Shown here piece by piece: positions 1,115 to 62,008 of a stretch of DNA of 64,000 bases (positions within the stretch are counted from its first letter, which is position 1; each line of letters opens with the position of its first letter). A program made the translations under genes and the position numbers. The notes under the pieces were generated by a model. That model was not told the origin of the DNA and searched no databases. It was given only the letters and a program-made list of their open reading frames with translations. The DNA lies in assembly GCA_951406725.2 (NCBI GenBank), contig OX597817.1:115320001-115384000 (forward strand). The letters are read 5' to 3'. Source of the stretch: Octopus vulgaris (lineage: Eukaryota).

Positions 1115-2807
1115 GCGTACAGACAAACACAATCACTCTCTGACTACAACAAAACTACACAAAGACATAAAAGAATATGCAAAAGTCATTGACACAAAAA
1201 GTATCTTAGGAATGTGCATTGATATATATGGAATGATCTTCGTACTATTTATGAAACTGCTTCTCAATATAGAAGCAATGATGACAGCTGAATAGTTCAA
1301 TATTTTCTGGAAGAACTTCCTAAAAGATCCATATTTACATGCATTAGAGTTATCGATACTTAGTAACCTAGCAGTTGGCCATTTTCGTCATTCGTTGACA
1401 GTATTACAAAGACAGTATCTTAAACACATCTAAAGTGCCTAGCCCTAAATACACTTACCACATCTCCGTTTATAGATACGCCATGAAGAAAGGTGCCGTC
1501 AATATATTTGCGGCATTCATGGAGTTGCAGAAGATGTTAGATATTCGTTAACTATATATATTTATATATCTGCCTTAGGCTCTTACCCTCTGGATTTCTT
1601 TTGGGGCTTACTCACTTAACCCGGTTTTTTTAACTACTCAGTAAATTGCCAAACAAGGCAGGAATGGCTTATTATCATAACAAACATGGTTTGTGCAGAG
1701 CCAGTACGTAGTAAAATTCAAGAAGACTACTGTTATTGTGCTCAATGTTACATTACATACGTTAAATTACGATACGTACATTCATATTCACAATATAAAA
1801 GGTATAAAAATGAGAAGACACGTTCAATGTACGATACGATTATAATCCTTTACTCGATAGATGCAAGACATAAAATTTTAGTGTGAGATATATTGTCAGC
1901 AATACTTGAATATGAATGAACTCATCCGGCCTAGATGGAAAAATGAAGAGTTGATCTTAGAATCCTAAGGAAAGTGGACTAGGATTCTAAGGAAAGTGAA
2001 CTAAGAATATAACGTATTTAGACAGAATCGATCAATCCACCTCCCGCTATTTCACATCTTTTAAAAATAAAGTATGAAAATCTCTCTAACGAACATTCGA
2101 TATGTATCTTTAGAAAACAGAAGTTGAAATTATTTTAAGCATGAGCCATTGCTCTTGAAACTGATAAAAAAACGTAAGAGAGAAACGGCCCGCCAAACTG
2201 AGAAAACTAATGATTAAGAAGGCAAAAAATGCTCGTCTCACATACGGCATCATACATACATTCACATACGCGAATAAATGCAGTGACAAACATAATTTTC
2301 ATAGAGTTTATTCACATAAACGCAGCAGCTGACAATTCTCTCCGTTCATATTATTACTTTCCCGTTCCAAAAACTTTTGCTAAATATATACATACATATA
2401 TGTATATGTGTATATATGTATATAACAGTGTGTGTGTACATGTGAGTGTATGCATGTGTGTGTACATGCGTGTGTACACTAGGCAATATATTACTGCCAC
2501 TTTTCCAAATGATTCGTATCTTGTCGGAAATTAAATAATGAAAGAAAGTAATATGGGTTAGCTGGGTGACTCTTTTTTTCCGTTTCGTTACTATATTAAT
2601 ATATGTAATTACTAACAACTAACTTATTGAAACATGATGTACTAAAGAACATAAAAATGTCTGTTCTTATTTAGCGAACATTTGTAAGTGTAAGTTACGT
2701 CGCTTTCACAAAATCATACTTGAATGCCACAAAAACGTACAATGCACATGTACGTACGTACGTACTTATGTATGTATGTATGTATTTATGGAGACGCATA
2801 CATACGA

Positions 2808-2844
<37 letters not shown>

Positions 2845-3230
2845 ACCGATAGAATAAGTACTAGGCTTACAAAGTCCTGGGGTTGACTTGTTCAACTAAC
2901 GGCGGTGCTCCGGCAAGAAGCAAATGACTGAAACAAAAGGATAAAATAATGTATACACACACACACTCACATAGCAAATTTTGAGGGATTATCAATCTGG
3001 ACAAAATCCTCCTTAAGCTCTCAGTTGCCGCACGAGGCTAACAATATTACTATGGCAGGGTCCGAGTTTATGGTTCATCACAATTCTATATTGTAAATCC
3101 GTGGTTGGGCTCCACCCAAACTGGTCTTTACTCAAGATATAAATAATGGTAATTACGTATTTGCATGTATGTATACATATATATCTCTATATAAGTTTAC
3201 AATATATGTATGTTCTTATGTATGCGTCTC

Positions 3231-3311
<81 letters not shown>

Positions 3312-3689
3312 TTCATTATAATAATATATATATTAACTATATATATTATATTATTATAATATATATATATATTATTATACTATATTATAATCATACATAC
3401 AACATAAAATCATACATACATATATATATACTATATATATATATATATATATAATCATACATACATATATACACACACATTCTTACATATATTATATATG
3501 CATATATTTTTGAGGAATTCTCATCAGTTTTTAACCATATCATCATCCCTCTGAGAGAAAGGCTACCTCGTATATAAAATTTGCTTCTCTACATTTTGCT
3601 TATATCTGAGTTTCTTGGTATTGTTAGTGAGAGTTGCTGTGGTGCTAGTGAGAGTTGCTGATAAAACAAGAGCCCGTTTGTCAGTTTTG

Positions 3690-4576
3690 TTGCGTGTTTG
3701 ATCTCAATAACCTTTCGAAACTGCCTCTACAAGTTGGCATAGTACTCTCCATTGATGGTGTGGCCTTTTCGAAGATAATCAATAAAGGCAATGCCTTTTA
3801 CATTCCCCCAAAAAGACTGAAGGCGTCACCTTCTCAACTGATGAAGCGACCAGAGTCTTTTGTTTGAGCAGGTGACAAGGGATATTTCCACTCTTTGCAC
3901 CTGGCTCAAAGTGATGAACCCAAAATTAATCTTGGATTGTGGAACTTCACGGAAACCAGCTGGACTTCCCTCAAATAATGTCACTTTCCCCGTCATGAGA
4001 TGAGATCAGCCTGATGCGATTTTGATCCGGTGTCAGTGGACCTGGCTCCCGCCGAGCAAAAACCTTCGTCATGCCGACTTCATTGCGCAGAACAGTCTCC
4101 TTTCCTTCACAGGATATGATAAGATCGCTGGCCATTTGATTTATAGTCAATCCCCTGTCGTCGTGACTATGTGGTGAACATGATCAATAGTTTCCTCTGT
4201 GGTGGTATTTCTGGACACCTAAAACTTGAATCATCTTAATGACTCTCGACTCCCCTTCTAAATTTAGCTTCCCACTGTTGATATAGCTGGAGCGACATCA
4301 CCTAATGTAACAATCATGTTAGCATGAATGTCCTTGGGGTCGAAGCCCTTTTTCTTCAGATATTTGATAACACCTCGATGCCAAATCTCGTCCATTTTCG
4401 GAAGTGGCTAATGGTTACATTTGAAATCTTCTTTGGACAGTTAGATATCATTTTACCTGGAAGGAAACAATGCAGTTGCTAATAAAGAGGGTTGTTGAAA
4501 TTAATGTATGTAGCATTTCATAGCTCATGCTTCATCCTTCATAGTCAACCTATGAACATTTCAACTCATACTCGTA
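3690..4576 (-). mobile_element. Degenerate, 3'-truncated mariner (SETMAR/Mos1-like) transposon
   Basis: Minus-strand ATG at 4395 reads MDEIWHRGVIKYLKKKG..DIHANM..TLGD.AP..STV. Later fragments read WVHHFEP and KGIAFIDYLRKGHTINGEYYANL. Stops and frameshifts are present. A TIR-like end TACGAG..TGAAATGTTCATAGG lies at ~4545-4576. Confidence 0.85.
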
Positions 4577-5496
4577 GATTATGTTACTTCGTTTGGACAT
4601 CGAATAGCATACGCGCGCCCACAAAAATGCACACAAGCACGTGTATACTCAGAAATAAACATACATCACATTCTTAGGCGCACATACCTTACATTCTTTA
4701 ACGCACATACGCAGACGCACTTATTCACACATACTTAGACACACATACATATGTAAATGTGTGTGTCTGTGTGAATGTGCATGTGTGTGCATGTATATAT
4801 TTCCTGTTATAGGGCGTAGAGCATCTAATAAGTAAATAAAGTATAATAATAATAATAAAATCCAGTATAAATTAAAGAATAACTACAAATTTCATATTCT
4901 GAGGAAATATATCAATTTGCTTCATTTTTATAGATTAAGTTTTGTACATTTGTGCATATGCACGAGTAATATAAAATATGGTCTGTTATATACGCATGCA
5001 TATATACACATGTATTCATTTATATATACATTATATATATGTATATATGTATGGATATATGTTCTCTGTGGGGTGTGAGTGTGTATGTGTGTTCAGTGCA
5101 CACATCGAAAAAGAATTAAGATCTTTCCCATGCCATTGACTCATAAGGTCGGTTTCCCGGATTGTGTGGCGTGCATATTTTTGTCATGAATATATATATA
5201 TATATACATGCAATTCGATTTAAAAAGTAACGCTATCACCACTAACTGAATACCGACGCAAGAAACTTGTTTGAATTAGTTCACTTTGCAAAGGACGTAG
5301 GTGATGGAACCTTGATGAAATTGCAACGACTAGGATGTATAATTGCATGCAGAGCAATGTGATGTTGCTGCAGTAGAAAAATATGATGGCCATTGTTATA
5401 TATGCTGTCGAAAACATTTTAATTAAAGATTTCGATGTGAATAAAACTCCACTCTCCTCTTGCTTTTCAATTTTATATATTCTTTTTTCTTTTTCT

Positions 5497-6599: not shown

Positions 6600-8250
6600 A
6601 TGTCAACTCCCAGCGAGGATAAAAACAAAACACAGCATGCGCAAGGAGTAGAGTGCCTACATTTTGCCATCTTATCAAGACACTTACACAGGGATCTGCC
6701 CTTCATATCAGACCCGAATTTCCTGGCTCATGTCAACAGTCCGGATGTGGTCATTCAACGACTGCGCCATCTCGAGCCCGAAACATTCAGAAGCAACAAA
6801 TACGCATCGGTTCCTGTGCTTTCCGTGATTGACATGACTACGGAACTTGTCGCTTCCTCGGATTTATACTGTTTCGGACTTACCTCCTCCGACATCCATC
6901 ACTGTCAGTTATAGTTGCCAACACACACTTCTAGTTCTATGGGCTCCAGCCTCGCATGTCTGCTCGTTATTGCCTACTGAAACCGCTGGAACGTAGGGTG
7001 CTCAGTACCTGCCAATTATACGCCTTTTTCACCAGGTATGTGGGTGATATCCTCATCCTCGCCCCATCTCATTGGCGCCTCCATTATACTAGATAATTTC
7101 AACCAGATGGACCAACATATTAGCTTCACCATCGAACACATAAATAGCAATATTTCCCTCTTTTTGCATGACTTTCTGATAAACATCATCATCGAGGGAA
7201 ACTTGACACGGTGTTCTACAGAATGCTGGGATTTCATCGTACATTACAAGCCGGCCTTTCCTATCAAGGCTAAGATGAGCTACTTATGTAACGAGATCAC
7301 TCGAATACACAAAAGATGCAGAGATAACACAAGCTGGAATGCACGCATTACTCACCTCCTAAAGGTACTCGAGGCCAACAGATATCCAACGTCCATTACT
7401 AACTCCATACGCAAACACATGTCCGGTAAACGTCGTAATAGAGATCTCTCTGAGACCTGCTTCTTGAAGATTCCCCACTTCAATGAGAAGACCACTTCTA
7501 CTTTTTTACAAAGCTGTCTACAGGGAAGGCTTTGACATCCTCCTGTCCTATTCAGGACCGTCCCTACGTAAAAACCTATCAACAAGGTGGTCACGTGCAG
7601 GTTAACAGCCCTACACACTGACGAACTACTCCATTTGCAGCACTAACATGTGCTTATGTACGTACGTAGTATACCAAATACAATGCTCCAAATGCTTTTA
7701 CATTAGTAGCACAGTATAACTACTCCGTGTCGGAATGAAGAAGCACATTCCTACCAACGCGTCTTCTTTCCGCAAAAACCCAGCTAGATACATCAACATC
7801 TCCAAAGAGATACATGCCTCCATACTGGTCTCGGAGAATAACACTTGAAATCTAAGTAAATTGAAGCTATATTAATCCGCTGTCTCAACCTGAAAATTAA
7901 CGGTCAATCGTCGTTGAGCCGGTGGATCCTATGAGAATGTCACGGCGACTGCGACCAACATCACAATATACGTCATCAACACGACCACGACCACGTGACC
8001 AAGTGCCGCATCAACCTACAATTGGAGAGTTGTTTACACCAACAGTCGGAGAGCTGTTTACACCAACAGTTGGAGGGAGGCCGCTACTGCCGCTTAGCAA
8101 GCACCGAGGAGTATGAGTCAGATAAAGGAATCGATGCAACTTGACACTTCCTGCCCTGTTTCCTTTTGCTGATGGGCTTTTGCACTTGAAACGTAAAGGG
8201 TTTTGTAAAAGTTTTCATATTTTCCCTTTTCTCTACCTTCTTCGGTACTA
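6600..8250 (+). mobile_element. Degenerate Penelope-like retroelement (RT + GIY-YIG remnants)
   Basis: RT remnants MGSSLACLL (~6940), FTRYVGDILIL (YVDD-like, ~7030) and NFNQMDQHISFTIE..LFLHDFLI (ORF 7038-7535). GIY-YIG-like VVYQIQCSKC at ~7667. The 3' region has a 24-bp tandem repeat (8022-8075) and a hammerhead-like motif. Confidence 0.75.
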
Positions 8251-9699: not shown

Positions 9700-10460
9700 T
9701 CTAAAGATGATTTGCATTGCGTCTTTTGAAGCCCACTTCGCATAAACCGATGTAATTCTTCTTTTCTGTAATCATAAACCGTGGCTCTTACTTCTGTCTC
9801 ATATATGACGGAGATTACCATGCAAAGTTGGTCGAGTGAGCAAGCTCCATGGTCGCGACAACTACAACTGGTGGCGTTCCGGATAATGATGTTCTTCATA
9901 TTGAGTCATCCGCTATATGATAACATAATTGAACGTCAGTTGAAGAACTTTCTCTACGTGTGATTTTCAGAGAAATGTTCATCTAAATGACACAGAAATC
10001 TCTTGATTACGTTAGTTTTAAAATTTAGGAAGGGTGGGGTTGTGATAAGCCAAATTATTTTGCCAGTACTATTTTTAGGTCGATTTCTATGAGGCTCATC
10101 TTGGTTAGAGGGGTTGTAGTATATTTCATCGTTAAAGCGAATGTTAGCTTGCGCATTGTTATAGTAGTGGTCTGCCTTAGCAAAAATACCTTTAGATGAA
10201 GAGAGACTAGATATCCTATTACTAATGTTACCTATCACTATAGGTGGGTGACAGGACTCCTTGTCTTTGTAGGAGAGCTTCGAGTTAGGCTTATGGTAGG
10301 GTTTGTAAGAGTGAGATCTTAGATCTGGGGAAACATCTAATAACTAAACTCTCACAAAAAAACGCTGTCTACAATATGTCTTTAAAGTATGAAACTGTTG
10401 GTGTATCATAACTTGATACTTTGAGCATTAAACGATGTTTATCTTTCATCGGATGGAATG
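9700..10460 (-). mobile_element. Degenerate Penelope-like retroelement fragment
   Basis: Minus strand reads SYKPYHKPNSKLSY..SCHPPIVIGNISNRISSLSSSKGIF..IIWL..PPF and then SVIYETEV (GIY-like). This matches the PLE RT thumb/linker/endonuclease region. Confidence 0.7.
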
Positions 10461-35906: not shown

Positions 35907-37334
35907 GTTTATCCTTAGGGAGAAAAATAGAGAGAGGGATAAAGGAAGCATCGTAATTTGTATATATAGACATGTAAATATGTCTATATCGTTACTCACT
36001 GTATGTCTGTCTGTCTCTATCTATCCGTCTATCACACACACTTGAATACACATGAATATATGTAATAATTTTTTCAGTAACTGGTTTTTCTTTAATCAAG
36101 GCTAGACATTCAGTAGTCGTTGAATAATACCTTCTGACGATTCACCTCATAAATTTTAATATCTCCACTACGTATCCCAGCAATCTCTCTATATATAAAC
36201 GGCAGGTTGTCTGTGCGTGCTTCTGTGTGTCTGTTTTCTCGTACCCTCACCCTGACCACGGTTTTCAACCGATTCTGATGAAACTTGACACACACATAGC
36301 CCAATGTCATAATTCAAAACTAACGCAGCGAAAATTTTGAAAAGTTCCCCCAGTTCTGAAAAAAATTGATAAATTCGACATGGGGTCGAGAATCATAAAC
36401 ATGAACCACAGATTGTCTAGGGGACGCAACTCGAGAATCTAAGCTTTTTTTATGCAACGCATTATCTATGGTAGTTTTCACAACTTGCAATCATTTTCAC
36501 CAAACTCATGGTGAAGCTTAATGTTACCCTAAGAAACTCAATTCTGACGTTAGTTTTCCATGCAATACCTTACCATCAGAAACAATCGATAAAATCATGC
36601 CATTTTGAGAAATCGCGTTCAAATTCAAGATGACATATTTTCGACAATATCTTTCACAAATTGGCAGGAATCTTTTTTTTTTTCACAACGAGCATCATGT
36701 CTGCTCCAAGGAGCTATATAGCCCTTTTTATTCCAATAGGATACATTATTGGAAAAAATCGGTTAATTTAATCATATGTGGCACACATAGCAAACAAATT
36801 TGTGTATTAAACACAAACCAGACTGTCTAGGGGACGCAACTTGACCTTTTTAGCTATCGATAATTCGATCCAACCAATTCCTACCAGGAAGAAATTACAT
36901 TCGAGACTTTACCCCCAACACCGCCACTTCTGCTAATAGCTGCTGCAGCCGCAAGTTATTCGAATACTTTTTTGGTTTAAACTTTCTTTATAACTACCAC
37001 CCCAAACGTTTTACCTTCAATTTTTGACGTACCCTAACGGTCCTCGGACGCTACTTGCAAACTCTTGGTTTATTATAAACCACTTTTGTCGTGTGCATCA
37101 AAAAACTTTTCCTTTCGTTTGTTCAGTTTGATCACTTTTGACTTTTTCGTTGTTGTCACTCACATTGCTGCCAGCTTTTTGGCCGTTTTTGTACATTTTT
37201 ATACATTTTCGGATACTTACCCCACGAGCTCCTTTTTATTACACCTTTACCAAACACATTGCTATCCACCAAAATACTTACCCCACGTGTTCCTTTTTAT
37301 TACACCTTTGCCAAACACATTGCTATCCACCAAA

Positions 37335-40300
37335 ATGCCACCCAAGAAGAGAAAGACCCTCCTCAGCCCTCGGACGGCCAAGGCATCGGCTGATAGGGCT
37401 AGAAGGGCACGCGAGACCCACGAGGAAACCGCCTTGCGCCTCTCGCAAACAGCTTCCCGTTATGCCGCTGCTCAGGCATCTGAAACTACTAGCGACCGTT
37501 CTACCCGACTTGCAAGGGTCGCAGCGTACAGATCTTCCCTCCGCTCGAGGTTGACGAAAGAGCAACAGTCCAGCGAAAACATGCGGGCTTCTTACTGTGC
37601 TTCCATCCGCAGAGCTCGCGAGAACCCCGAACAAAGGGCCATTCGGAATGCGGCTAACGCCACTAGCACTGCCAGGACACGATCTGTCGAAACCTCACAG
37701 CAGAGGAGAACTCGCCAAGATGCTGACGCCGCAAACAAAGCCATGGCCAAAGCTGCCGAAACACCTCAACAGAGGAGAGCTCGCCAAGCTGCTAACGCCG
37801 CAAACACAGCCAGGGCTCGATCTGCCGAAACTCCACACCAACGGACTATTCGGACATCCAGACATGCCATTAACACTGCTTCTGCTAGGGCTTCAGAGGG
37901 TGCTGAGGCGAGAGCTGAAAGGCTTTCAAGGGATGCCACTGCTACCGCTGTCGCACGTGCATCTGAATCTACTGAGGCACGGTGCACTCGACTTGAGAGT
38001 ATCAACAAACGTCGGGATATCATTCGTGGTGTACGTACCCCTGCCCCCGCTTTCTGGTTGTCACTAGCATTCAACTACGACGCCACAATTAACTTCTCCT
38101 TGCGTGACGACATCAAGATAGGGTCAATGACAATTGTATGCCAGTTTTGCAAAGCCAAGAAATGGGCCGGAGAGCCACCTGGTTTGTGCTGCTCTGGTGG
38201 CAAAGTGGACCTGCCACCCCTACGGGAACAACCTCAACCACTGAAGGATCTCGCGGCGGGTTTAACCCCCGATTCGTCACAATTCCTTGAAATAATTCGA
38301 AAGTACAACTGCTCATTCCAAATGACCTCTTTTGGGGCCAAAATTCCTCCCAGAGAAGGCTGGATGCCTACTTTCAAAGTGCAGGGACAGGTCTACCATC
38401 TTATTGGGTCACTTCTGCCAGACGAGATTCAGCAGTCTTCTTTCCTCCAAATATACTTCATTGCCGACTACAACCACCAGGTTGATGCACGCCTTGGAAT
38501 AATACCGGGTACAAGCTATGTTCCTCGCAAAGACATTCTTCTCCGTCTCCAAACCATGCTTCATGATATCAACAGCTACGTCTGCAGCTTCAGATATGCC
38601 TTGGACAGTGCTCCATCTCCAAACTTCACCGTTGTCATTGATGCTGATAAACGACCCCACGGGGAGCACGAACGCCGTTTCAACGCACCTGCGTGCAACG
38701 AAATTGCCGCAGTTATACACGGAGAGCAACACAACAGCTGTGACATAATCATCTCCTCCCGTGGTAACAACCTACACAGGATCAGCGAGACTCACAGATC
38801 TTATGACGCGCTTCAGTATCCATTGCTTTTCCCTTATGGGGAAGACGGCTACCACTTCGGAATTCCTTTACGGCAGCCCTCCAATCAAACTACTGCGGCA
38901 TCAAAGACGGTTTCCTGCAGGGCGTTCTACTCATACCGGTTCATGGTCAGGGAGGGTGAGTTCAACTTATTGCCCCGTTGTCGTCAGCTATTCAACCAGT
39001 TCGCCGTCGACATGGCCGCAAAAATGGAATCGGAAAGGCTGCTATACATTAAACTTAATCAGACCAAACTTCGCTCCGACTCCTACATTCATCTCCGTGA
39101 CGGTTTGCAACAAGAAAATGACCCTCGCAACATCGGCAAGCCATGCATTCTACCCTCCACCTTCACGGGAGGACCGCGATATATGCGTGAAAGGACCCAA
39201 GACGCCTTGACCTACGTGCGCATTTACGGCCGGCCGGACCTCTTTATCACCTACACGTGCAATCCCAGCTGCGACGAAATCACTCGCGAACTCCTCCCGG
39301 GTCAATCTCACACCCATCGACACGACATCGTTGCTAGGGTTTTCCGTCTGAATTTGGGCAAAATGAAGGATTTGATAGTTAAGGGTCAGATTTTCGGGCA
39401 CGTCAGGTGCCACATGTTTTCGGTCGAGTGGCAAAAGAGGGGCTTGCCACATGCTCACATCTTAATTTGGCTCACTCATAAAATCGAGACTAATGACATT
39501 GACAAATTCATTTCCGCCGAGATTCCTGACCCCGATGAGGACCCCGGACTCTACGAAATTGTCCGCACTACCATGGTACACGGGCCCTGTGGACCAAATT
39601 ACGCCAACACACCATGCTACAAAAACGGATTAGCCTGCTCAAAGGGATTCCCTAAACGGTTCACTTTGGAGACTCAAACAGGCGGCGATGGGTATCCGCT
39701 GTACAAACGAAGGAGTCCAGCCAATGGAGGCCGCACGATTACGGTTGGGCGACATCAAGTGGACAACAGCTACATTGTCCCCTACTGTCCTCTCCTGTCG
39801 AAGATATTCAAAGCCCACGTCAACGTTGAGTTCTGCAGCTCCATCAGGTCAATACAATATGTCTGCAAATATATCAACAAAGGCAGCGATGCTGCCATGT
39901 TCAGCATCCAGAGGACCACCAGTCGCGACGAAGTGTCCAACTACTTGGCTGGCCGGTACCTCAGCAGCAACGAAGCGTTTTGGCGCATTTACGGCTTCCC
40001 GCTCCATCAGAGACACCCGGCTGTGGTGCAGCTTGCTGTACACTTGGAAAATGGACAGCGGATTTACTTCACAGAGCAAAGTGCTGTGCAGATAGCCACC
40101 AGCCCTAAAGACACAACGTTGACTGGTTTCTTCAAATTATGCCAACGTGATGACTTCGCTCGAACGCTTTTGTACCCACAGGTCCCATCGTACTTCGTGT
40201 GGTCTAAAAACACCTGGGTTCGACGGAAATCCGGCAAAAACGTCGAAAGCTTCCCAGGCGTCAAGTTTGACTCCTGCCTGGATCGAGTTTACAACATCCC

Positions 40301-42221
40301 GCCAAACCAGCAAGAATGCTTCTACCTCCGTCTCCTTCTACATGAGGTCACTGGTCCAACAGGTTTCGCCAATATACATACCGTCAATGGGGTTCTGTGC
40401 GACACCTTCAGGGAAGCATGTATGAGACTTGGCCTTCTAGAGGATGACTCCCAGTGGGACGCCACGGTGGCAGAGGGTGCTTTACTGCAAACGCATTCGG
40501 CCCTACGACATCTTTTCGCAATCCTTCTTCAAAAATGTCAGCTTAGTGATCCACTAAGTCTCTGGATGAAATACAGGGATGACATGTCGCACGACTTCTT
40601 ACGTACGGCTCAGCAACACTGCCCTTCCGCCGAGATCACGTTCACCAACTTTTACAATTTTTACAATTTTTACAATTTTGCGCTCATTCAACTCGAAGAC
40701 GCTGTCATCGATATGGGTGGGTCTGCTTTAACAGAGTACGGCCTTCCACCACCCACACGTGAACACGCCAATGTTATGTCTGCTGAATTGTTACGCGAAA
40801 CTTCCTACTGCATTGAGGAACTGCACCAGTACGTCCAAGATAATGAACCACGGCTGCTTCCAGACCAGCGCATAGCCTATAACACCATCGTAGACTCTGT
40901 CAGACAGCAACGTGGGGGGATTTTCTTCCTTGATGCACCCGGCGGCACTGGCAAAACCTTCGTCACTAAACTAATTCTGGCAGAGGTCAGACGCAACACG
41001 GACATTGCCCTGGCTGTAGCTTCCTCTGATATCGCGGCCACGTTGCTTCCGGGTGGCAGAACCGCCCACTCTGCCTTCAGACTCCCGCTCGATCTGGCAA
41101 AGTCCGAGTCACCTATCTGCAACATCGCCAAGAACTCAGAACAGGCCGACATTCTGCGCAGATGCAAACTCATCGTATGGGACGAGTGCACTATGGCACA
41201 CAAAAGCGCCCTTGAGGCACTGGACAGGTCCCTGCAAGACATCAGAGACTCTACGGCCCCCATGGGAGGATTAACTTTACTTCTTTCAGGAGACTTCAGG
41301 CAGACTCTACCTGTTATTCCAAAAGGAACCCGTGCCGATGCCGTGCGCGCGTGCCTTAAGTCGTCAGCTCTTTGGGCACATGTGCGGCCCTTGCACCTCC
41401 AAACTAACATGCGCGCGCAGTTAATTGGTGACAGCGGATCCGCTGCATTCTCCAGGGACCTCTTATCGCTCGGTGAAAATAGGATGCTGTCTGATGCGGA
41501 TGGCTACGTTCAATTGGACTCACTTTGCACCATTGTCGACACCCCTGCTAGCCTCCGGGACGCTGTCTTCCACGACCTACAAAACAATTTACGCGACCTA
41601 AAATGGCTGGCAGGCAGAGCTATTCTCGCACCCAAAAATACAACCGTCAACTCCATCAATATCCAGCTACTTGAAGCTATTCCTGGTGATGTCCACGTCT
41701 ACAAATCTATAGATAGGACAGCAGACCCCGCCCAGCTTGCCGATTATCCTGTTGAATTCCTGAATTCACTTGAACCGCCAGGCCTGCCACCACACATCCT
41801 GAAGTTAAAAGTCGGTGCGCCCATTATGCTCATCAGGAATTTGGTTCCACCTAAACAGTGCAACGGCACACGTTTGGTTGTGAAACATTTGGCACCACAT
41901 TTAATAACGGCCACAATACTTACCGGTTGTGGGAAGGGAGAGGACGTCTTCATTCCACGGATGCACCTTCAACCGTCGGGCGCTGACCTACCAATCCACT
42001 TCAGGCGTTCTCAGTTTCCTGTTAAACTCTGCTTCGCAATGTCCATCAATAAATCCCAAGGCCAAACGCTACAAGTCGCTGGGTTACATTTGGGCGAACA
42101 GTGCTTCGCCCACGGTCAACTCTACGTGGGCTGTTCACGCGTTGGGAGGCGCAATGATGTTTTCATGTTTTCGCCCAAACGGACAGCTAGGAACATCGTA
42201 TATACAGAAGTATTCCAGTGA
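37335..42221 (+). CDS. Helitron RepHel transposase (HUH Rep + Pif1-family SF1B helicase), ~1628 aa
   Basis: Likely start MPPKKRK (NLS-like) at 37335 within ORF 37065-42221. Zn-finger-like CQFC..CC. Rep motifs PDLFITYTCNP, EWQKRGLPHAH (HUH) and YVCKYINK. Helicase motifs DAPGGTGKT, IVWDE, GDFRQTLP, FAMSINKSQGQTL and HGQLYVGCSRV. No internal stops. Confidence 0.95.
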   Translation: MPPKKRKTLLSPRTAKASADRARRARETHEETALRLSQTASRYAAAQASETTSDRSTRLARVAAYRSSLRSRLTKEQQSSENMRASYCASIRRARENPEQRAIRNAANATSTARTRSVETSQQRRTRQDADAANKAMAKAAETPQQRRARQAANAANTARARSAETPHQRTIRTSRHAINTASARASEGAEARAERLSRDATATAVARASESTEARCTRLESINKRRDIIRGVRTPAPAFWLSLAFNYDATINFSLRDDIKIGSMTIVCQFCKAKKWAGEPPGLCCSGGKVDLPPLREQPQPLKDLAAGLTPDSSQFLEIIRKYNCSFQMTSFGAKIPPREGWMPTFKVQGQVYHLIGSLLPDEIQQSSFLQIYFIADYNHQVDARLGIIPGTSYVPRKDILLRLQTMLHDINSYVCSFRYALDSAPSPNFTVVIDADKRPHGEHERRFNAPACNEIAAVIHGEQHNSCDIIISSRGNNLHRISETHRSYDALQYPLLFPYGEDGYHFGIPLRQPSNQTTAASKTVSCRAFYSYRFMVREGEFNLLPRCRQLFNQFAVDMAAKMESERLLYIKLNQTKLRSDSYIHLRDGLQQENDPRNIGKPCILPSTFTGGPRYMRERTQDALTYVRIYGRPDLFITYTCNPSCDEITRELLPGQSHTHRHDIVARVFRLNLGKMKDLIVKGQIFGHVRCHMFSVEWQKRGLPHAHILIWLTHKIETNDIDKFISAEIPDPDEDPGLYEIVRTTMVHGPCGPNYANTPCYKNGLACSKGFPKRFTLETQTGGDGYPLYKRRSPANGGRTITVGRHQVDNSYIVPYCPLLSKIFKAHVNVEFCSSIRSIQYVCKYINKGSDAAMFSIQRTTSRDEVSNYLAGRYLSSNEAFWRIYGFPLHQRHPAVVQLAVHLENGQRIYFTEQSAVQIATSPKDTTLTGFFKLCQRDDFARTLLYPQVPSYFVWSKNTWVRRKSGKNVESFPGVKFDSCLDRVYNIPPNQQECFYLRLLLHEVTGPTGFANIHTVNGVLCDTFREACMRLGLLEDDSQWDATVAEGALLQTHSALRHLFAILLQKCQLSDPLSLWMKYRDDMSHDFLRTAQQHCPSAEITFTNFYNFYNFYNFALIQLEDAVIDMGGSALTEYGLPPPTREHANVMSAELLRETSYCIEELHQYVQDNEPRLLPDQRIAYNTIVDSVRQQRGGIFFLDAPGGTGKTFVTKLILAEVRRNTDIALAVASSDIAATLLPGGRTAHSAFRLPLDLAKSESPICNIAKNSEQADILRRCKLIVWDECTMAHKSALEALDRSLQDIRDSTAPMGGLTLLLSGDFRQTLPVIPKGTRADAVRACLKSSALWAHVRPLHLQTNMRAQLIGDSGSAAFSRDLLSLGENRMLSDADGYVQLDSLCTIVDTPASLRDAVFHDLQNNLRDLKWLAGRAILAPKNTTVNSINIQLLEAIPGDVHVYKSIDRTADPAQLADYPVEFLNSLEPPGLPPHILKLKVGAPIMLIRNLVPPKQCNGTRLVVKHLAPHLITATILTGCGKGEDVFIPRMHLQPSGADLPIHFRRSQFPVKLCFAMSINKSQGQTLQVAGLHLGEQCFAHGQLYVGCSRVGRRNDVFMFSPKRTARNIVYTEVFQ

Positions 42222-53828: not shown

Positions 53829-53922
<94 letters not shown>

Positions 53923-54044
53923 CAACAATAAAGGAACGGCCATAATAGGCCATTCACCCACTAGAAATAACAGCCAAAGCTTCAACCGCAAATAAAAGTT
54001 AATTCAGTAAACCAGGAGAAAATTTAAAAAACATTTACCCTGTA

Positions 54045-54151
54045 ATTTCTTATACGATATACCGTTTCATCTGCTGATTAATGGTAAACTAACCTGATTA
54101 AATTAAATCAAGCCAATCTTCCACAGGCCCTCAGATTCTTCAGTAAGAAAT
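54045..54151 (-). ncRNA. Type I hammerhead ribozyme, copy 1
   Basis: Reverse complement of the motif at 55202-55308. Confidence 0.85.
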
Positions 54152-54537
54152 AGCCCAAGACGGAACAGATATTTTCACGAGGCATTTCCGACGTTGCCAA
54201 GTTTATATCTGACCTAAAATTTTCAAATCGTCGCACTCGCGCCAAATTTATCGGCAGCAAATAAATATAAGCCGTCGATTCCATTACGGAATTAACCAGA
54301 AAATTCATAATTAATCAATATAGGGTGGCAAAAAAAAATTTGTAGAATTCTTTTGCCACCAGCGGCCTAGTAGGAAAAAATTAAAATAGTCATAGACCAT
54401 TTTTAAGTTTAACATCAACAATAAAGGAACGGCCATAATAGGCCATTCACCCACTAGAAATAACAGCCAAAGCTTCAACCGCAAATAAAAGTTAATTCAG
54501 TAAACCAGGAGAAAATTTAAAAAACATTTACCCTGTA

Positions 54538-54644
54538 ATTTCTTATACGATATACCGTTTCATCTGCTGATTAATGGTAAACTAACCTGATTAAATTAAA
54601 TCAAGCCAATCTTCCACAGGCCCTCAGATTCTTCAGTAAGAAAT
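54538..54644 (-). ncRNA. Type I hammerhead ribozyme, copy 2
   Basis: Reverse complement of the motif at 55202-55308. Confidence 0.85.
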
Positions 54645-55201
54645 AGCCCAAGACGGAACAGATATTTTCACGAGGCATTTCCGACGTTGCCAAGTTTATA
54701 TCTGACCTAAAATTTTCAAATCGTCGCACTCGCGCCAAATTTATCGGCAGCAAATAAATATAAGCCGTCGATTCCATTACGGAATTAACCAGAAAATTCA
54801 TAATTAATCAATATAGGGTGGCAAAAAAAATTTTGTAGAATTCTTTTGCCACCAGCGGCCTAGTAGGAAAAAATTAAAAAGCTTTGGCTGTTATTTCTAG
54901 TGGGTGAATGGCCTATTATGGCCGTTCCTTTATTGTTGATGTTAAACTTAAAAATGGTCTATGACTATTTTAATTTTTTCCTACTAGGCCGCTGGTGGCA
55001 AAAGAATTCTACAAAATTTTTTTGCCACCCTATATTGATTAATTATGAATTTTCTGGTTAATTCCGTAATGGAATCGACGGCTTATATTTATTTGCTGCC
55101 GATAAATTTGGCGCGAGTGCGACGATTTGAAAATTTTAGGTCAGATATAAACTTGGCAACGTCGGAAATGCCTCGTGAAAATATCTGTTCCGTCTTGGGC
55201 T

Positions 55202-55308
55202 ATTTCTTACTGAAGAATCTGAGGGCCTGTGGAAGATTGGCTTGATTTAATTTAATCAGGTTAGTTTACCATTAATCAGCAGATGAAACGGTATATCGTA
55301 TAAGAAAT
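55202..55308 (+). ncRNA. Type I hammerhead ribozyme, copy 3
   Basis: Stem I ATTTCTTA/TAAGAAAT (8 bp). Core CTGAAGA (55210-16). Stem II ATCTG/CAGAT closing a 58-nt hairpin insert. GAAA (55285-88). Stem III CG-GTATAT-CG. Triplet GTA, cutting after 55300. Confidence 0.87.
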
Positions 55309-55693
55309 TACAGGGTAAATGTTTTTAAATTTTCTCCTGGTTTACTGAATTAACTTTTATTTGCGGTTGAAGCTTTGGCTGTTATTTCTAGTGGGTGAAT
55401 GGCCTATTATGGCCGTTCCTTTATTGTTGATGTTAAACTTAAAAATGGTCTATGACTATTTTAATTTTTTCCTACTAGGCCGCTGGTGGCAAAAGAATTC
55501 TACAAAATTTTTTTTGCCACCCTATATTGATTAATTATGAATTTTCTGGTTAATTCCGTAATGGAATCGACGGCTTATATTTATTTGCTGCCGATAAATT
55601 TGGCGCGAGTGCGACGATTTGAAAATTTTAGGTCAGATATAAACTTGGCAACGTCGGAAATGCCTCGTGAAAATATCTGTTCCGTCTTGGGCT

Positions 55694-55800
55694 ATTTCTT
55701 ACTGAAGAATCTGAGGGCCTGTGGAAGATTGGCTTGATTTAATTTAATCAGGTTAGTTTACCATTAATCAGCAGATGAAACGGTATATCGTATAAGAAAT
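55694..55800 (+). ncRNA. Type I hammerhead ribozyme, copy 4
   Basis: Identical to copy 3, 492 nt downstream, cutting after 55792. Confidence 0.87.
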
Positions 55801-56023
55801 TACAGGGTAAATGTTTTTTAAATTTTCTCCTGGTTTACTGAATTAACTTTTATTTGCGGTTGAAGCTTTGGCTGTTATTTCTAGTGGGTGAATGGCCTAT
55901 TATGGCCGTTCCTTTATTGTTGATGTTAAACTTAAAAATGGTCTATGACTATTTTAATTTTTTCCTACTAGGCCGCTGGTGGCAAAAGAATTCTACAAAA
56001 TTTTTTTTGCCACCCTATATTGA

Positions 56024-56072
<49 letters not shown>

Positions 56073-56965: not shown

Positions 56966-57993
56966 CTACACACACACTTACACACACACATACATACACA
57001 TACATACACACCCTTTTATATAATTATTAACAAGGACAATAGCGTGAGCAATTCGTTCTATTACATAATTTTAGAAGTGTTTAATCGATATTTTATCAGC
57101 AGTGCATTGTTAAAACCTAAGTAAAATATCAGACATGGATCGTCTTCACTCCACCATTTTATTATGAAAATACATGTTTTGTATGTTGTGTTTTGAAGAA
57201 AACTCTTTCTAATTGTGATTCTTTATATAATTTTCGTTTGTCAGTTATTTTGTATCGTTTTCATTGACAACAAGCTAACAATTTTATTATAAAGTTATTG
57301 CAGCCTGAAGCCTTCTTACTGTCTTCCAAAATACTAAGTCTAATCATACTTACGTGTAAAATTTTATTATTGCTATGTTGTTAGAATTATATTACCTCGA
57401 AAATAATTGTTACAAAAAGTACATCGTATGTAGGTCAACTTTTCATACTTGTAATAGCATTTCTTAAAGTACAATTTTCTTATCTTAATGTTCATCGTAT
57501 TCAATTTAGTGCTGTTATAAACATTCCCACTCTCTATTGCCGATGATGTTCTCACCATTTTTGGTTGTCTAACTTATAGAGTGACAAAAATCTCTGCATT
57601 TCGCTGTAGAGTCTCATTTATCTAACTCGCGCTTCATTAACTGACGATTGTGAGACAGCTAATTTTCGAGTCGCCGTTATCCACACACACATACAAATAC
57701 TGACACATAGTATTCGATTTTGTTAATATCGCTTAATTTTCACAAAATATCTAGCAGTTAATCACAGTTATTATTTACCCAAGAGTTTGTGAAAAATGAA
57801 AGTAAGGTCTAATTCTCAATAACCAAAAATGAAAGCACGTAAGTGAATTGACACTGAAACCCCACCAAAAGAATAGTATATTCAAACCCGCACACACATA
57901 CAGACACATATCAGAAGGAAAAATGATTAATAAATCCAGATATTTATAATGCACTCAGTGTCATGTGTGTACGTGTGTTTCCTTGTAGGAAAG

Positions 57994-58040
<47 letters not shown>

Positions 58041-58049
<9 letters not shown>

Positions 58050-58365
58050 CAATATAGGGTAGCAAAAAATTCAAGAAAAAATTCAAGAAAAATTTTCTGC
58101 AACCAGCGGTCAAGTGAGAAAATAGAAATAGTCACAGACTATATAATATACTCAACAAAATATTAAGGAAAGACCCTTACAGGTCATTCGACTCACTTGA
58201 AAAGAGCAGCCAAAACTCAAACCGCAAAAATAGTAGTAATTCTGAAAGCTAAAGGAGAATTTCTCCTTTAACTTTCAGAATTACTACTATTTTTGCGGTT
58301 TGAGTTTTGGCTGCTCTTTTCAAGTGAGTCGAATGACCTGTAAGGGTCTTTCCTTAATATTTTGT

Positions 58366-58367
<2 letters not shown>
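58041..58367. repeat. Diverged relative of the 493-bp unit forming a near-perfect palindrome
   Basis: Arms 58153-58259 and 58261-58367 are 107 bp each, with 1 mismatch and a 1-nt spacer. Shares TCAATATAGGGT.GCAAAAAA..CCAGCGG..AAATAGTCA.AGAC and CAGCCAAA..AACCGCAAA..GGAGAA with the 493-bp unit. (TA)n on both sides. Confidence 0.85.
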
Positions 58368-58405
<38 letters not shown>

Positions 58406-58731
58406 CATATTTCAGCATATATATTGTAAAATTTGAACGCCATATATCTTTATCTGGCCTTTACAAAATAAATCATTCTGAAATATGATGATGGTTATAA
58501 ATTTTGGTACATGCCCACCAACTTTAGGATTTGGGGTTAATTAGATTGAATCAACTCTAGTCTTCATCTGGTAATTATTTTCATCTTTTTGAACCAGAAC
58601 GGATGAAGGGTAAATTCGATCTCGACCGAATTCCTAAATATAATTATAATTTGTAAGGAAGGCACAACAGCAGCAATTTTTAGAGAAGGTCAGTCGATTT
58701 CAAAGCCGAGTACTCCATTGGTGCTAAATTT

Positions 58732-58814: not shown

Positions 58815-61800
58815 TTTCGCTGCTCTGACCTGGTAATTGCGCAACCTGATAATCGTTACCTCATATGAGTGACAATGCAAAAACAAAATATTGTGAATAA
58901 CGGTGGGAATAAAACTGAAACCAATGATGGCGACAGTGGTACACCCGGTAGGCTCAGAGATTCTGGTGTGGCTCCAACCTGTCGATATCCAGAAAGGGAC
59001 CACCACACACGGCGTAGATGGAGCAAGCAAATTAATGCTGTGGTCATGGAGTGTTACTACCTTAGTAGCCCGGTAGATGACAATGGCACTCAAATTAGGG
59101 GTTACTGATAAAGTATGTATAATCATTGGAGAGAAAAGGGATCGTTTCAACTCACGGAACAAAGACTATGTGATCAAGCTAGAGTAATAAGAAAAAATTG
59201 TTGGTTCACAGAAGTAGAGTTCAAAGCTATCAAAAGACGGGTCATGGAAAATAGTAGCAGAGGCAACAATGAAGATAAAGTTCTTACTAATAAGTGTAAT
59301 CCCATAGCACAGGAAAGGGGTAGTGGTAGTTTACTTGATGAGAGACATATTGATGATCTAAAAGAAGACAATAAAACTAATGGGGACATGACAGATGAAC
59401 AAAAGGCAATCTACGACTAAATAAAGGTAAGACTACAGGAGAACGATAGCAACATTATTTGCAACCTTGAAAAGTTTGATCGATGGAAATTGAACAAAGA
59501 AACGAAAAATGCCAATGAAATTCTGAAATACATCACAACAAAAACATCAAAGAAACAAACATTTTGATCAAGGCATCAAGTATTGTTGTAGCAGATAATG
59601 TACGTGTTGATGTCAAGAAAAAGAAATGTAATGGGAGTGACAGAAGAAAATATCCATGGTGGAAAAGAAGAATTCAGGCGAGGTTATTAGATATGCTCTG
59701 GAAGGACATTTCTGTGTTAGACCGAAAAGAGAAGTGGGTGCTTAAAAGCAAAGAAAATTACCGGGCACTGGATAGGAAATATTAAAAGAAAGGGATTAAA
59801 ATTGGTAATGGAGGTACTAAAACAGCGCCTCGTTGCAAAGAAGGCAAAGATAGTAAGATACGACCACAGAATGAAGGGATACCAGCAGAATAGATAATTC
59901 AGAGTAGATCAGAAGAGATTCTATAATGAAATGAATGGAAATTGTACAGATGAAAAATTGATACCAGCTAACATCGAAAGTCAAAGATTTTGGAGTGACA
60001 TCTGGAGCAAAGACAAGGAGCACAAGAAGGATACTGAATGATTGCAGGAACTGAAACAAACAGTAGTCTGTTCAAAACAGACAGAACTAGTCATTTCAGT
60101 AAGGGAATTGAAGGAAATCAGCAAAAACAAAAGGCCCCGGGACCAGATGGAGTTCAAGGCTACTAGATAAAAGTTTTTGTTGAATATTATGCCCGAATAG
60201 CTGCACAATTCAATGCCGACCAAATAACACCAGAGTGATTGACAATGCGTAGGACAGTGCTGTGCTTGATAAACATTGAAAAAAGCAATACGGTAGACAA
60301 TTACAGGCCGGTATCCTGCTTGCCACTTATGTGGAAATTATTTATTTCTGGAATAATCTCCAGAGTCAATGTACTGACATCTGGAAAAATGGAGTCCTGC
60401 CAGAAGGGTTGCAAGCGTAAGTGCAGAGGTACCAAGGATCAACAAGTAGACAAAACTGTACTTAAAGAATGTAAGAGGAGGAAAATTAACCTAGCTATAT
60501 CATGGATCGGCTATCGTAAGGCGTACGATATGATCCCACATTCTTGGATTGTGGAATGTATGATCGTATTTTGTATTGCATTGAATGTTGAGCGATTGCT
60601 TAGAAAAAGTATGGCGAAGTGGTGGACAGAACTGGCAGCATATGGAAGAAGTTTAGGGAAAATAGAAATCAGTAGAGGCATCTTCCAAGGGGACTTCCTT
60701 TCTCAACTGATCTTTGTACTGTGCCTGATACCACTAATACTGATTCTGAGGAAAGCAAAGGCCGGTTATGTATTCAAAAGCTGCCAACAAAAAGTCAGCC
60801 GCTTGTTATTCATGGATGACTTCAAACTTTATGGCAAGGATGAATCCCAAGTCAGTTCCCTCGTTGATACGGTGTATAATTTCAGTGCCGATATCAGAAT
60901 GGATTTCGGACTGAAAAAGTGTGGTATGTTAGTTTTGAAGCGAGGCAAAATCAAATGTGTGGATGGGCTAGCGATACCGTCGGGGCAGGTTATGAAGCAG
61001 ATAGAAGAGACGGGCTATACGTACTTGGGGATATTGGAAATGCATAAATTGTTGGAGAAAGAAATGACAAGAAAATTTAAGGCAGAGAACTTGTTCAGAA
61101 TGAGAATGATCCTTAAATCGAAATCAAATGGATGGAATAAGATTGAAGCTATCAGCACCTGGGCGGTTTCACTACTTAGAGGACTGACTGGATGCGAACA
61201 CAGCGTTAGAAGAAAACAACATAGCATGGTATGCAAAAAATGACAGAGAACCACTATTATTGGAAGTAAGAAGATCAGGATTATGTAGGATGGAAAATCG
61301 GAAAGATAAAGCAGTTTACAAGGACTTAAGAATGAATGAAACTGAAAATATGTGGAGAAAGAAAGGAATGCATGAACAATTTCATAGGGTTGTTGAAGAT
61401 GACTAAAAGTGATTTAAAACCGGAAACGGAGGCTCTAATCTGTGCTGCCCAACAGCAAGCATTGAGAACCAATTGCATCAAAGGCAGAATAAAAAACACA
61501 CCAGAAAGTGATAAGTGCAGACATTGTGGACAAAAAGGTGAAACCGTATGACATATTACCAGTCGACGTACGCCACTAGCACAGAAAGAATATAAGAGAT
61601 GTCATGGCAATATAGCATGGATTGTCCATTGGAAAATTTGCAACAAGTATGGACTTGACAGGAAAAAAATGTGGTATGAACTTAAACCCGAAGGCATCAT
61701 CGAAAATGATACTGAAAAGATCCTATGGGATTTTATGATTCTGTGCGACCATGAGATAGAGAATAGGAAACCAGCTGACAACAAGGTATGCGATAAGGAA

Positions 61801-62008
61801 GGAAGAAAAGTCGATAGATATGACAAGTTAGCTTGGGAGTTTAAGCAGATGTGGTCGCTGGAAAAGATGGTAGTAGTAAAATTAATTGTCGGAACACTGA
61901 GAACAGTGATTCAAGATGTTGAGAAGTACATGGAATAAATTAAACAGATGCTGAAATAAGAGTAGAGCAATTGAAGAAAACAGCACTGCTTGGGACTGCT
62001 CGAATACA
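58815..62008 (+). mobile_element. Near full-length, degenerate R4/Dong-like non-LTR retrotransposon
   Basis: N-terminal RRRWSKQIN..MECYY and LTEQRLCDQARVI. RT motifs YRPVSCLP, QKGC..RGTKDQ, YRKAYDMIPH, RGIFQGD, LLFMDDFKLY. Knuckle CRHC..H. RLE region WDF..D..ENRKP. Many stops and frameshifts. Preceded by (TAA)n/(TGA)n. Confidence 0.9.

Follow-up and report, generated by a model that had tools for sequence, protein, structure and literature searches.

A head-to-head insertion between two TA tracts

The window, i.e., the 64,000-nt stretch of Octopus vulgaris DNA that was analyzed, contains a head-to-head palindrome lying between two target tracts of alternating A and T, (AT)23.5 at 57997-58043 on the left and (TA)17.5 at 58368-58402 on the right (neither has a strand). 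The tailed arm, part of a unit of the retrozyme subfamily that we call B, lies on the minus strand at 58044-58259 and has its outer end at a site termed E1, and the tail-less arm lies on the plus strand at 58261-58367 and ends at a second site, E2. A tail of ~100 nt between the two end sites (58044-58152, minus strand) is confined to the tailed arm. Where the arms coincide, they are 107-bp reverse complements (58153-58259 and 58261-58367) with a 1-nt center and a single mismatch (58249 versus 58271), and the left arm reaches ~110 bp past the palindrome, to 58041-58044. With unit positions numbered from the predicted hammerhead cleavage site, the tailed arm corresponds to positions 29 to about 247 of the B unit and the tail-less arm to positions about 29-135, the aligned end of the latter being called at 148, since its alignment is carried on into the flank by AT-rich bases. 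The inversion joint (58259-58260) has a 1-nt overlap and falls 27-29 nt downstream of the predicted cleavage site. The copy is shorter than one unit; both arms ended 27-29 nt before reaching that site, which accounts for a palindrome that is near-perfect and lacks a hammerhead. It represents a recent insertion, two-armed and truncated at the 5' end, of the subfamily B repeat, a non-coding unit of 491 nt with a predicted hammerhead.

An insertion of subfamily A (locus L071) also occurs in the window. It consists of a tail-less (E2) arm of 1.9 units of 493 bp (53921-54879, minus strand) and a tailed (E1) arm of 2.3 units (54879-56031, plus strand). Sequence, motif scan and folding predict a type I hammerhead at 55202-55308 (plus strand), with its core at 55210 and cleavage after 55300; a further copy of the motif lies at 55694-55800 (plus strand), and two more, mapped from the inverted repeat, lie at 54045-54151 and 54538-54644 (minus strand). 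An earlier note on this DNA had described the element at 58041-58367 as a palindrome with 107-bp arms inside (TA)n, a diverged relative of the 493-bp unit that shares the two termini of the large array and stops short of the hammerhead. This description proved accurate. Identity to the 493-bp unit was 70% over 224 columns by blastn (E = 5e-18), the local alignment score was 197 compared with 80 ± 6 (maximum 101) for 300 shuffles, and both outer ends are homologous to the array ends at 56031 and 53921.

Several other elements were seen in the window. A 1727-aa stop-free frame at 37038-42221 (plus strand) resembles, as we take it from its motifs, a Helitron Rep/PIF1 helicase. A decayed RT element, presumably R4/Dong-like, immediately follows a (TAA)n(TGA)n tract and occupies about 58820-61940 (plus strand; RVT_1 at 60239-61240). 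Frames at 6981-7535 (plus strand) and 9954-10343 (minus strand) presumably correspond to degraded C-terminal RT regions of Penelope-like retrotransposons (PLEs).

A dispersed non-coding unit with a predicted hammerhead

Subfamily A forms tandem arrays of its 493-bp unit, and longer copies of subfamily B have a natural tandem unit of 491 bp (as in a B dimer); in both subfamilies each unit runs straight into the next, and the tandems comprise at most about six units. A and B units are identical at 347 of 448 aligned positions. We searched the genome (2.8 Gb, about 30 large contigs) and found 85 exact matches, on many contigs, to a 32-mer internal to B. Exact A-type end sites numbered 181 and 681, although the surplus of E1 over E2 sites (681:181) is only apparent, since the E1 pattern also matches a further subfamily, A'.

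The earlier note had suggested looking for a hammerhead with compensatory changes in longer copies of the subfamily, and motif scanning and folding revealed one: at least 46 B-type motifs were predicted in 128 partly overlapping loci (motif scan). Pairing in stems I, II and III is kept between A and B despite differing letters, and in A' one stem-II pair is changed on both sides, from G-C to A-T. Loop 3 is short and near-palindromic. Circular folding gave z-scores of -6.5 for B and -5.5 for A (30 shuffles). An Rfam scan of the window at the gathering threshold returned no matches, hammerhead included. No ORF continuous with any unit was seen in the loci printed or mapped, and none ran upstream in sense from the units in the loci examined; a PLE frame with RT and GIY-YIG is absent from units A and B and was found only in a separate family, P1 (see below).

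Non-LTR retrozymes are recognized as dispersed, mobile copies of tandem units of about 50-1000 bp that lack an ORF or LTR and bear one type I hammerhead per unit, and by an RNA that self-cleaves and is expressed in linear and circular forms. Among the public sequencing runs listed as containing the element there was no RNA run, which has no bearing on its expression in either direction. Units A and B have this size and tandem arrangement without an ORF or LTR, each has the hammerhead as judged by motif scan, folding and A/B/A' compensation, and their dispersal and mobility are seen in the exact-match counts and in an empty site. Since the longer B copies carry a predicted type I hammerhead with compensated stems, the window element and its relatives appear to fit the non-LTR retrozymes. 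The window element is one further retrozyme, of an element type that is already published.

An empty allele

An empty allele was present in three of the four public runs examined. Contigs from runs X2, X3 and X6 (three samples from two studies, with flanks ~2% different from the window) join the flanks without the element, connecting 57983 to 58414 with 34 letters between them; run X1 gave no contig bridging the site and is therefore uninformative as to presence. The window interval 57983-58414 includes 24 unique flank bases and, by arithmetic at this one site, the AT repeat is about 10 nt long in the empty allele versus about 80 nt in the filled one. Each insertion may lengthen its (TA)n tract. 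The earlier note had argued against an assembly artefact, and the contigs of these three runs, together with 44 two-armed B loci in the genome, bear this out.

Two fixed ends, one of each per insertion

To characterize the termini, we used a first set of 67 B and 25 A loci, the B sample favoring copies in which unit positions 42-73 or 29-247 are present. The aligned end at E2 lies at about 148 in B and 131 in A, and that at E1 at about 245 in B and 235 in A (positions from the predicted cleavage site), i.e., the sites are about 100 nt apart, with (TA)n beyond each. The claim of two fixed end sites was upheld by the B outer ends, 102 of 111 of which were at E1 or E2 (eight were elsewhere and one was at a gap). 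TA-rich flanks followed 51/55 E1 and 34/47 E2 ends in B by a crude measure, which gives too low a count since alignments extend into the tract. Among 44 two-armed B loci, 36 paired E1 with E2 and none had a same-type pair; one had an end at a gap, and seven had one end at neither site, which counts against the mechanism proposed below. Eighteen of 20 two-armed A loci also paired E1 with E2, and the other two ran off the stretch.

Since these samples were biased by the search, 40 more A loci were taken, each anchored on one end, which was E2 for half of them and E1 for the other half. In each set of 20, counted by eye, the second arm ended at the opposite site in 14 and was a short stub in one; the remaining loci were one-armed (three and four, respectively) or cut off (two and one). 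No same-type pair occurred among these 40 loci (by eye). Likewise, inspection of the 100 + 100 exact end sites listed showed no E1-E1 or E2-E2 neighbors and nine outward E1-E2 pairs on contigs C1-C2. When both ends could be classed, a tailed end was paired with a tail-less one in 36/36 B, 46/46 A and 17/17 P1 loci, for a total of 99/99 classed two-armed loci from three families.

An inverted, 5'-truncated copy with a tail at one end and an AT-rich target is the published signature of PLE insertion, and the loci show each of these features. The two termini are the tailed and tail-less ends of PLEs and, as the anatomy matches that signature, the two fixed sites to which the earlier note drew attention are therefore a known PLE trait. 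That note had also called for termini, flanks and inversion points to be tabulated; the ends proved fixed and the flanks (TA)n, but the inversion point varies. We infer that integration proceeds by the TA-microsatellite-primed reverse transcription that it proposed. Microhomology to the target was considered as a cause of the ends and rejected: AT-rich bases follow both sites in B and P1, but A has none after E2. Taken as a whole, the window element is a real and recent insertion, and it is highly probable that it is a retrozyme mobilized by a PLE.

P1, a candidate partner, and hybrid loci

P1 is a young PLE family, with 98-100% identity between copies and a tandem period of 4271 bp. A 775-aa frame was open in about 58 of the 150 matches listed (by eye), with matches to RVT_1 (below the curated cut-off) and to GIY-YIG, the latter C-terminal. 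Its linker, CX4CxxC, is a motif common to Neptune and Nematis in the available text of PMC8557442, and domain order and linker together would be in keeping with a Neptune-type PLE. A PDB sequence search with P1 gave no matches. P1 copies terminate next to (AT)n at either of two sites separated by 30 nt, with a 30-nt tail, and all 16 two-armed loci with both ends seen had one tailed and one tail-less end; L175 is a 17th. In P1 tandems (L192 4791-4890 and others), an (AT)7 tract directly follows the tailed end within the unit and is a possible template for AT addition.

Between units A and B and the 3'-terminal 800 nt of P1 no homology could be detected (scores of 94 and 100, respectively, against shuffle means of 113 and 109), and with scores below the shuffle means a derivation of the units from the P1 pseudo-LTR found no support. 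As A and B are without detectable homology to the P1 3' region, the enzyme could be that of another PLE family. P1 is the best candidate source of the enzyme, as a candidate only.

At one locus, L032 (C13:22.94 Mb), a tail-less B arm is joined head-to-head, with a 3-nt overlap, to a tailed, 5'-truncated P1 arm. This locus, which is duplicated on an unplaced contig, obeys the one-of-each rule and was the only clean retrozyme-P1 hybrid in 132 retrozyme loci. Three other mixed head-to-head junctions (L033, L013 and L244) depart from it, and L032 could therefore be the product of a later deletion. Seven loci, these three among them, were rejected as hybrids. At L033 the partner PLE ends at an apparent tail-less end, beside a separate insertion, and the locus breaks the pairing rule if it arose in one event; at L013 the partner copy is about 10% diverged from its own family and therefore older; at L244 the partner end is near its own tail-less site. 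The partner 3' end faces the joint at L023, TA tracts separate the partners at L022 and L028, and at L248 the joint is with an old element's TA flank. L033 also contains (about 2450-5000, minus strand) a member of another PLE family, P2, with a C-terminal GIY-YIG and no obvious CxxC linker; it is head-to-head with a B dimer via a short inverted B piece.

Joints, arms and a proposed mechanism of insertion

Inversion points vary and cluster just downstream of the predicted hammerhead cleavage site. The 44 B joints comprised 21 with overlaps of 1-14 nt, 11 that were blunt and 12 with inserted bases, classes that are approximate since they were taken from BLAST ends. In A, the inner ends of 18/64 segments lay in an interval that begins 5 nt before the predicted cleavage site and extends to 35 nt beyond it, against 9.5% expected (rate ratio 3.7, p = 2e-5); the interval was picked after inspecting the data and equals the top region of a sliding scan, and the test used 35 end-anchored loci, five of the 40 having been omitted because they lay at an edge, were mis-oriented or aligned poorly. 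The corresponding figure for the B set, which is biased, was 46 of 116. This concentration explains why the near-perfect window palindrome stops before the hammerhead. The pile-up, an indirect pointer to possible self-cleavage, could reflect stalling of the reverse transcriptase at the structured ribozyme; either such stalling or run-off at a cleaved 5' end would suffice. Two B loci with differing flanks, L095 (C8:40.17 Mb) and L097 (C8:63.60 Mb), have the same inversion joint (unit 32/19), perhaps a favored one.

A full account of insertion by a PLE enzyme through twin cDNAs seems likely to us. The target would be a short (AT)n tract and the enzyme likely that of a Penelope-like retrotransposon, whose RT-GIY-YIG protein, probably as a dimer, would nick both (AT)n strands. 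Each nicked 3' end would then prime a cDNA, the template being the same RNA for both or else sibling monomers derived from a single transcript, with one cDNA starting at the downstream E1 and the other at E2, about 100 nt upstream. Both would extend toward the RNA 5' end, often a hammerhead-cleaved one, and the truncated cDNA ends would be joined bluntly or by a few bases of microhomology to give the head-to-head inversion. In a more specific form, which we put forward tentatively as a serious possibility, one dimeric PLE RNP would couple the two priming events, using the bracketing sites one per (AT)n strand and never the same site twice; retrozymes would mimic this two-site geometry without homology, often from cleaved RNA, and on rare occasions would ride together with PLE RNA to give hybrids.

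The variants carried by the arms bear on whether they could instead come from two separate RNAs, one per protomer or in successive events, with the order of events setting the use of E1 and E2. Variants common to both arms of a locus occurred at 0.026 per column in B, compared with 0.0066 (maximum 0.015) in 2000 permutations, and at 0.0015 per column in A compared with 0.0001 by permutation; sharing was about four times higher within than between loci in B and about ten times in A, and no permutation equalled the observed sharing. The arms therefore derive from one source RNA or locus or were later converted, and the common variants could indeed reflect conversion between palindrome arms. Although L032 obeys the rule with two unrelated RNAs, and arms of which neither contains the other would also be expected from two RNAs, arms of the same locus are much more alike than arms across loci, so free mixing is excluded and only sibling RNAs from one transcript fit. 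Hybrids, at 1/132 loci, are moreover rare. We thus regard an origin from two separate RNAs as unlikely.

Self-priming or fold-back, in which the E1 cDNA snaps back or primes on an antisense template and the inverted arm is trimmed or ends at E2, accounts for the shared variants and was proposed for the inverted repeats of PLEs in the available text of PMC3846280. It suits loci in which the short arm lies inside the long one, as in 11/36 B loci and in the window copy. However, neither arm contains the other in 18/36 B loci (10 of these with at least 50 nt unique to each arm) and in 4/9 monomeric P1 loci; A loci are mostly uninformative in this respect, with "neither" in 1/18. When neither arm contains the other, one arm is not a copy of the other, so fold-back is excluded as the sole route, and it gives no reason why the second arm should stop exactly at E2. 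We consider it improbable.

A third alternative is that the copies are short, 5'-truncated versions of an autonomous PLE not found here, with the unit as its pseudo-LTR. The anatomy is the same as that of PLE termini, and retrozymes are reported to derive from pLTRs in the portion of bioRxiv 10.64898/2026.07.22.740005 at hand. On the other hand, the 491/493-bp units close on themselves, and upstream of them the loci examined had no sense ORF, making this very unlikely. Finally, although assemblies are error-prone at palindromes between microsatellites, an assembly artefact or a DNA-level foldback (MITE-like or a repair palindrome) is scarcely credible, given that dozens of dispersed loci share their ends yet differ in their joints, that there are point changes between arms, that an empty site was observed, and that the ends are not terminal inverted repeats because they differ by the tail.

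Comparison with known systems

Twin cDNAs recall L1 twin priming, in which an inversion arises from two primers, one per target strand; there, the position of second priming is variable and the arms are without overlap. Unlike in L1, both sites here are fixed, and the overlap between the arms is wide.

Published work already covers retrozymes, inversions, tails and the existence of two start sites. With metazoan non-LTR retrozymes, as described in the accessible text of PMC7229834 and bioRxiv 10.64898/2026.07.22.740005, the octopus units share non-coding tandem units of a few hundred bp and low GC, a type I hammerhead per unit, a structured RNA (here predicted) and co-occurrence with PLEs. In the same texts the PLE link is inferred from co-occurrence and pLTR homology, and the words "inverted" and "microsatellite" are absent from the available part of PMC7229834. 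Unlike those retrozymes, as far as these texts go, the insertions here themselves bear the PLE end signature.

With the EN+ Neptune and Nematis PLEs, the accessible portions of PMC8557442 and PMC3846280 indicate as common features partial tandems, an inverted 5'-truncated copy, a tail at one end, a (TA)n target and a hammerhead upstream of the ends. By the same portions, the retrozyme differs in having no ORF and a tail of about 100 nt versus 30-40. Furthermore, our counts put a figure on the pairing and include no same-type pair, whereas the tail is there "optional" or "often" one-ended: in the text at hand, PMC3846280 describes a tail that is optional on one of the inverted pLTRs and suggests self-priming, and PMC8557442 describes inverted copies, a 30-40-bp tail that is often one-ended and a (TA)n bias, and calls the mechanism undefined.

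For Poseidon PAc in vitro, the available text of PMC11167929 reports two internal RT start sites, one on either side of the tail and both downstream of the hammerhead, and an AT-rich target of which both strands are nicked and extended; a dimer is predicted. According to that text, top-strand and bottom-strand start sites were not seen to differ in vitro, hammerhead cleavage is dispensable and uncleaved RNA is the main substrate. Set against this account, our genomic data point to coupled, asymmetric use of the sites as well as to frequent stops near the predicted cleavage site. Our literature search, which covered mostly freely available main texts, found no strict one-of-each rule; nor, in the same texts, did it find a twin-cDNA or twin-priming model for PLEs or retrozyme insertions shown with the PLE signature.

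The census bears on two questions left open by the cited papers in the text available: how PLEs build tandem and inverted structures with a one-sided tail, and whether PLEs mobilize animal retrozymes. The pairing rule, the non-nested arms that share variants and the stops near the hammerhead give precise predictions for the existing in vitro PLE assay, and the genome supplies a matched set for it, pairing a young PLE that has many open frames with an RNA substrate of 0.5 kb.

The genome also contains many hammerhead-like families. Elements D, F and C (L215-L230, L244, L262 and L023) are hammerhead-like and have tailed and tail-less ends in (TA)n. Family E (L200, L202, L204 and L210) is a (TA)n element with two ends about 135 nt apart, and each of the four two-armed copies among the six printed pairs one end of each type (by eye); its tail has a short T-rich motif in common with A and B.
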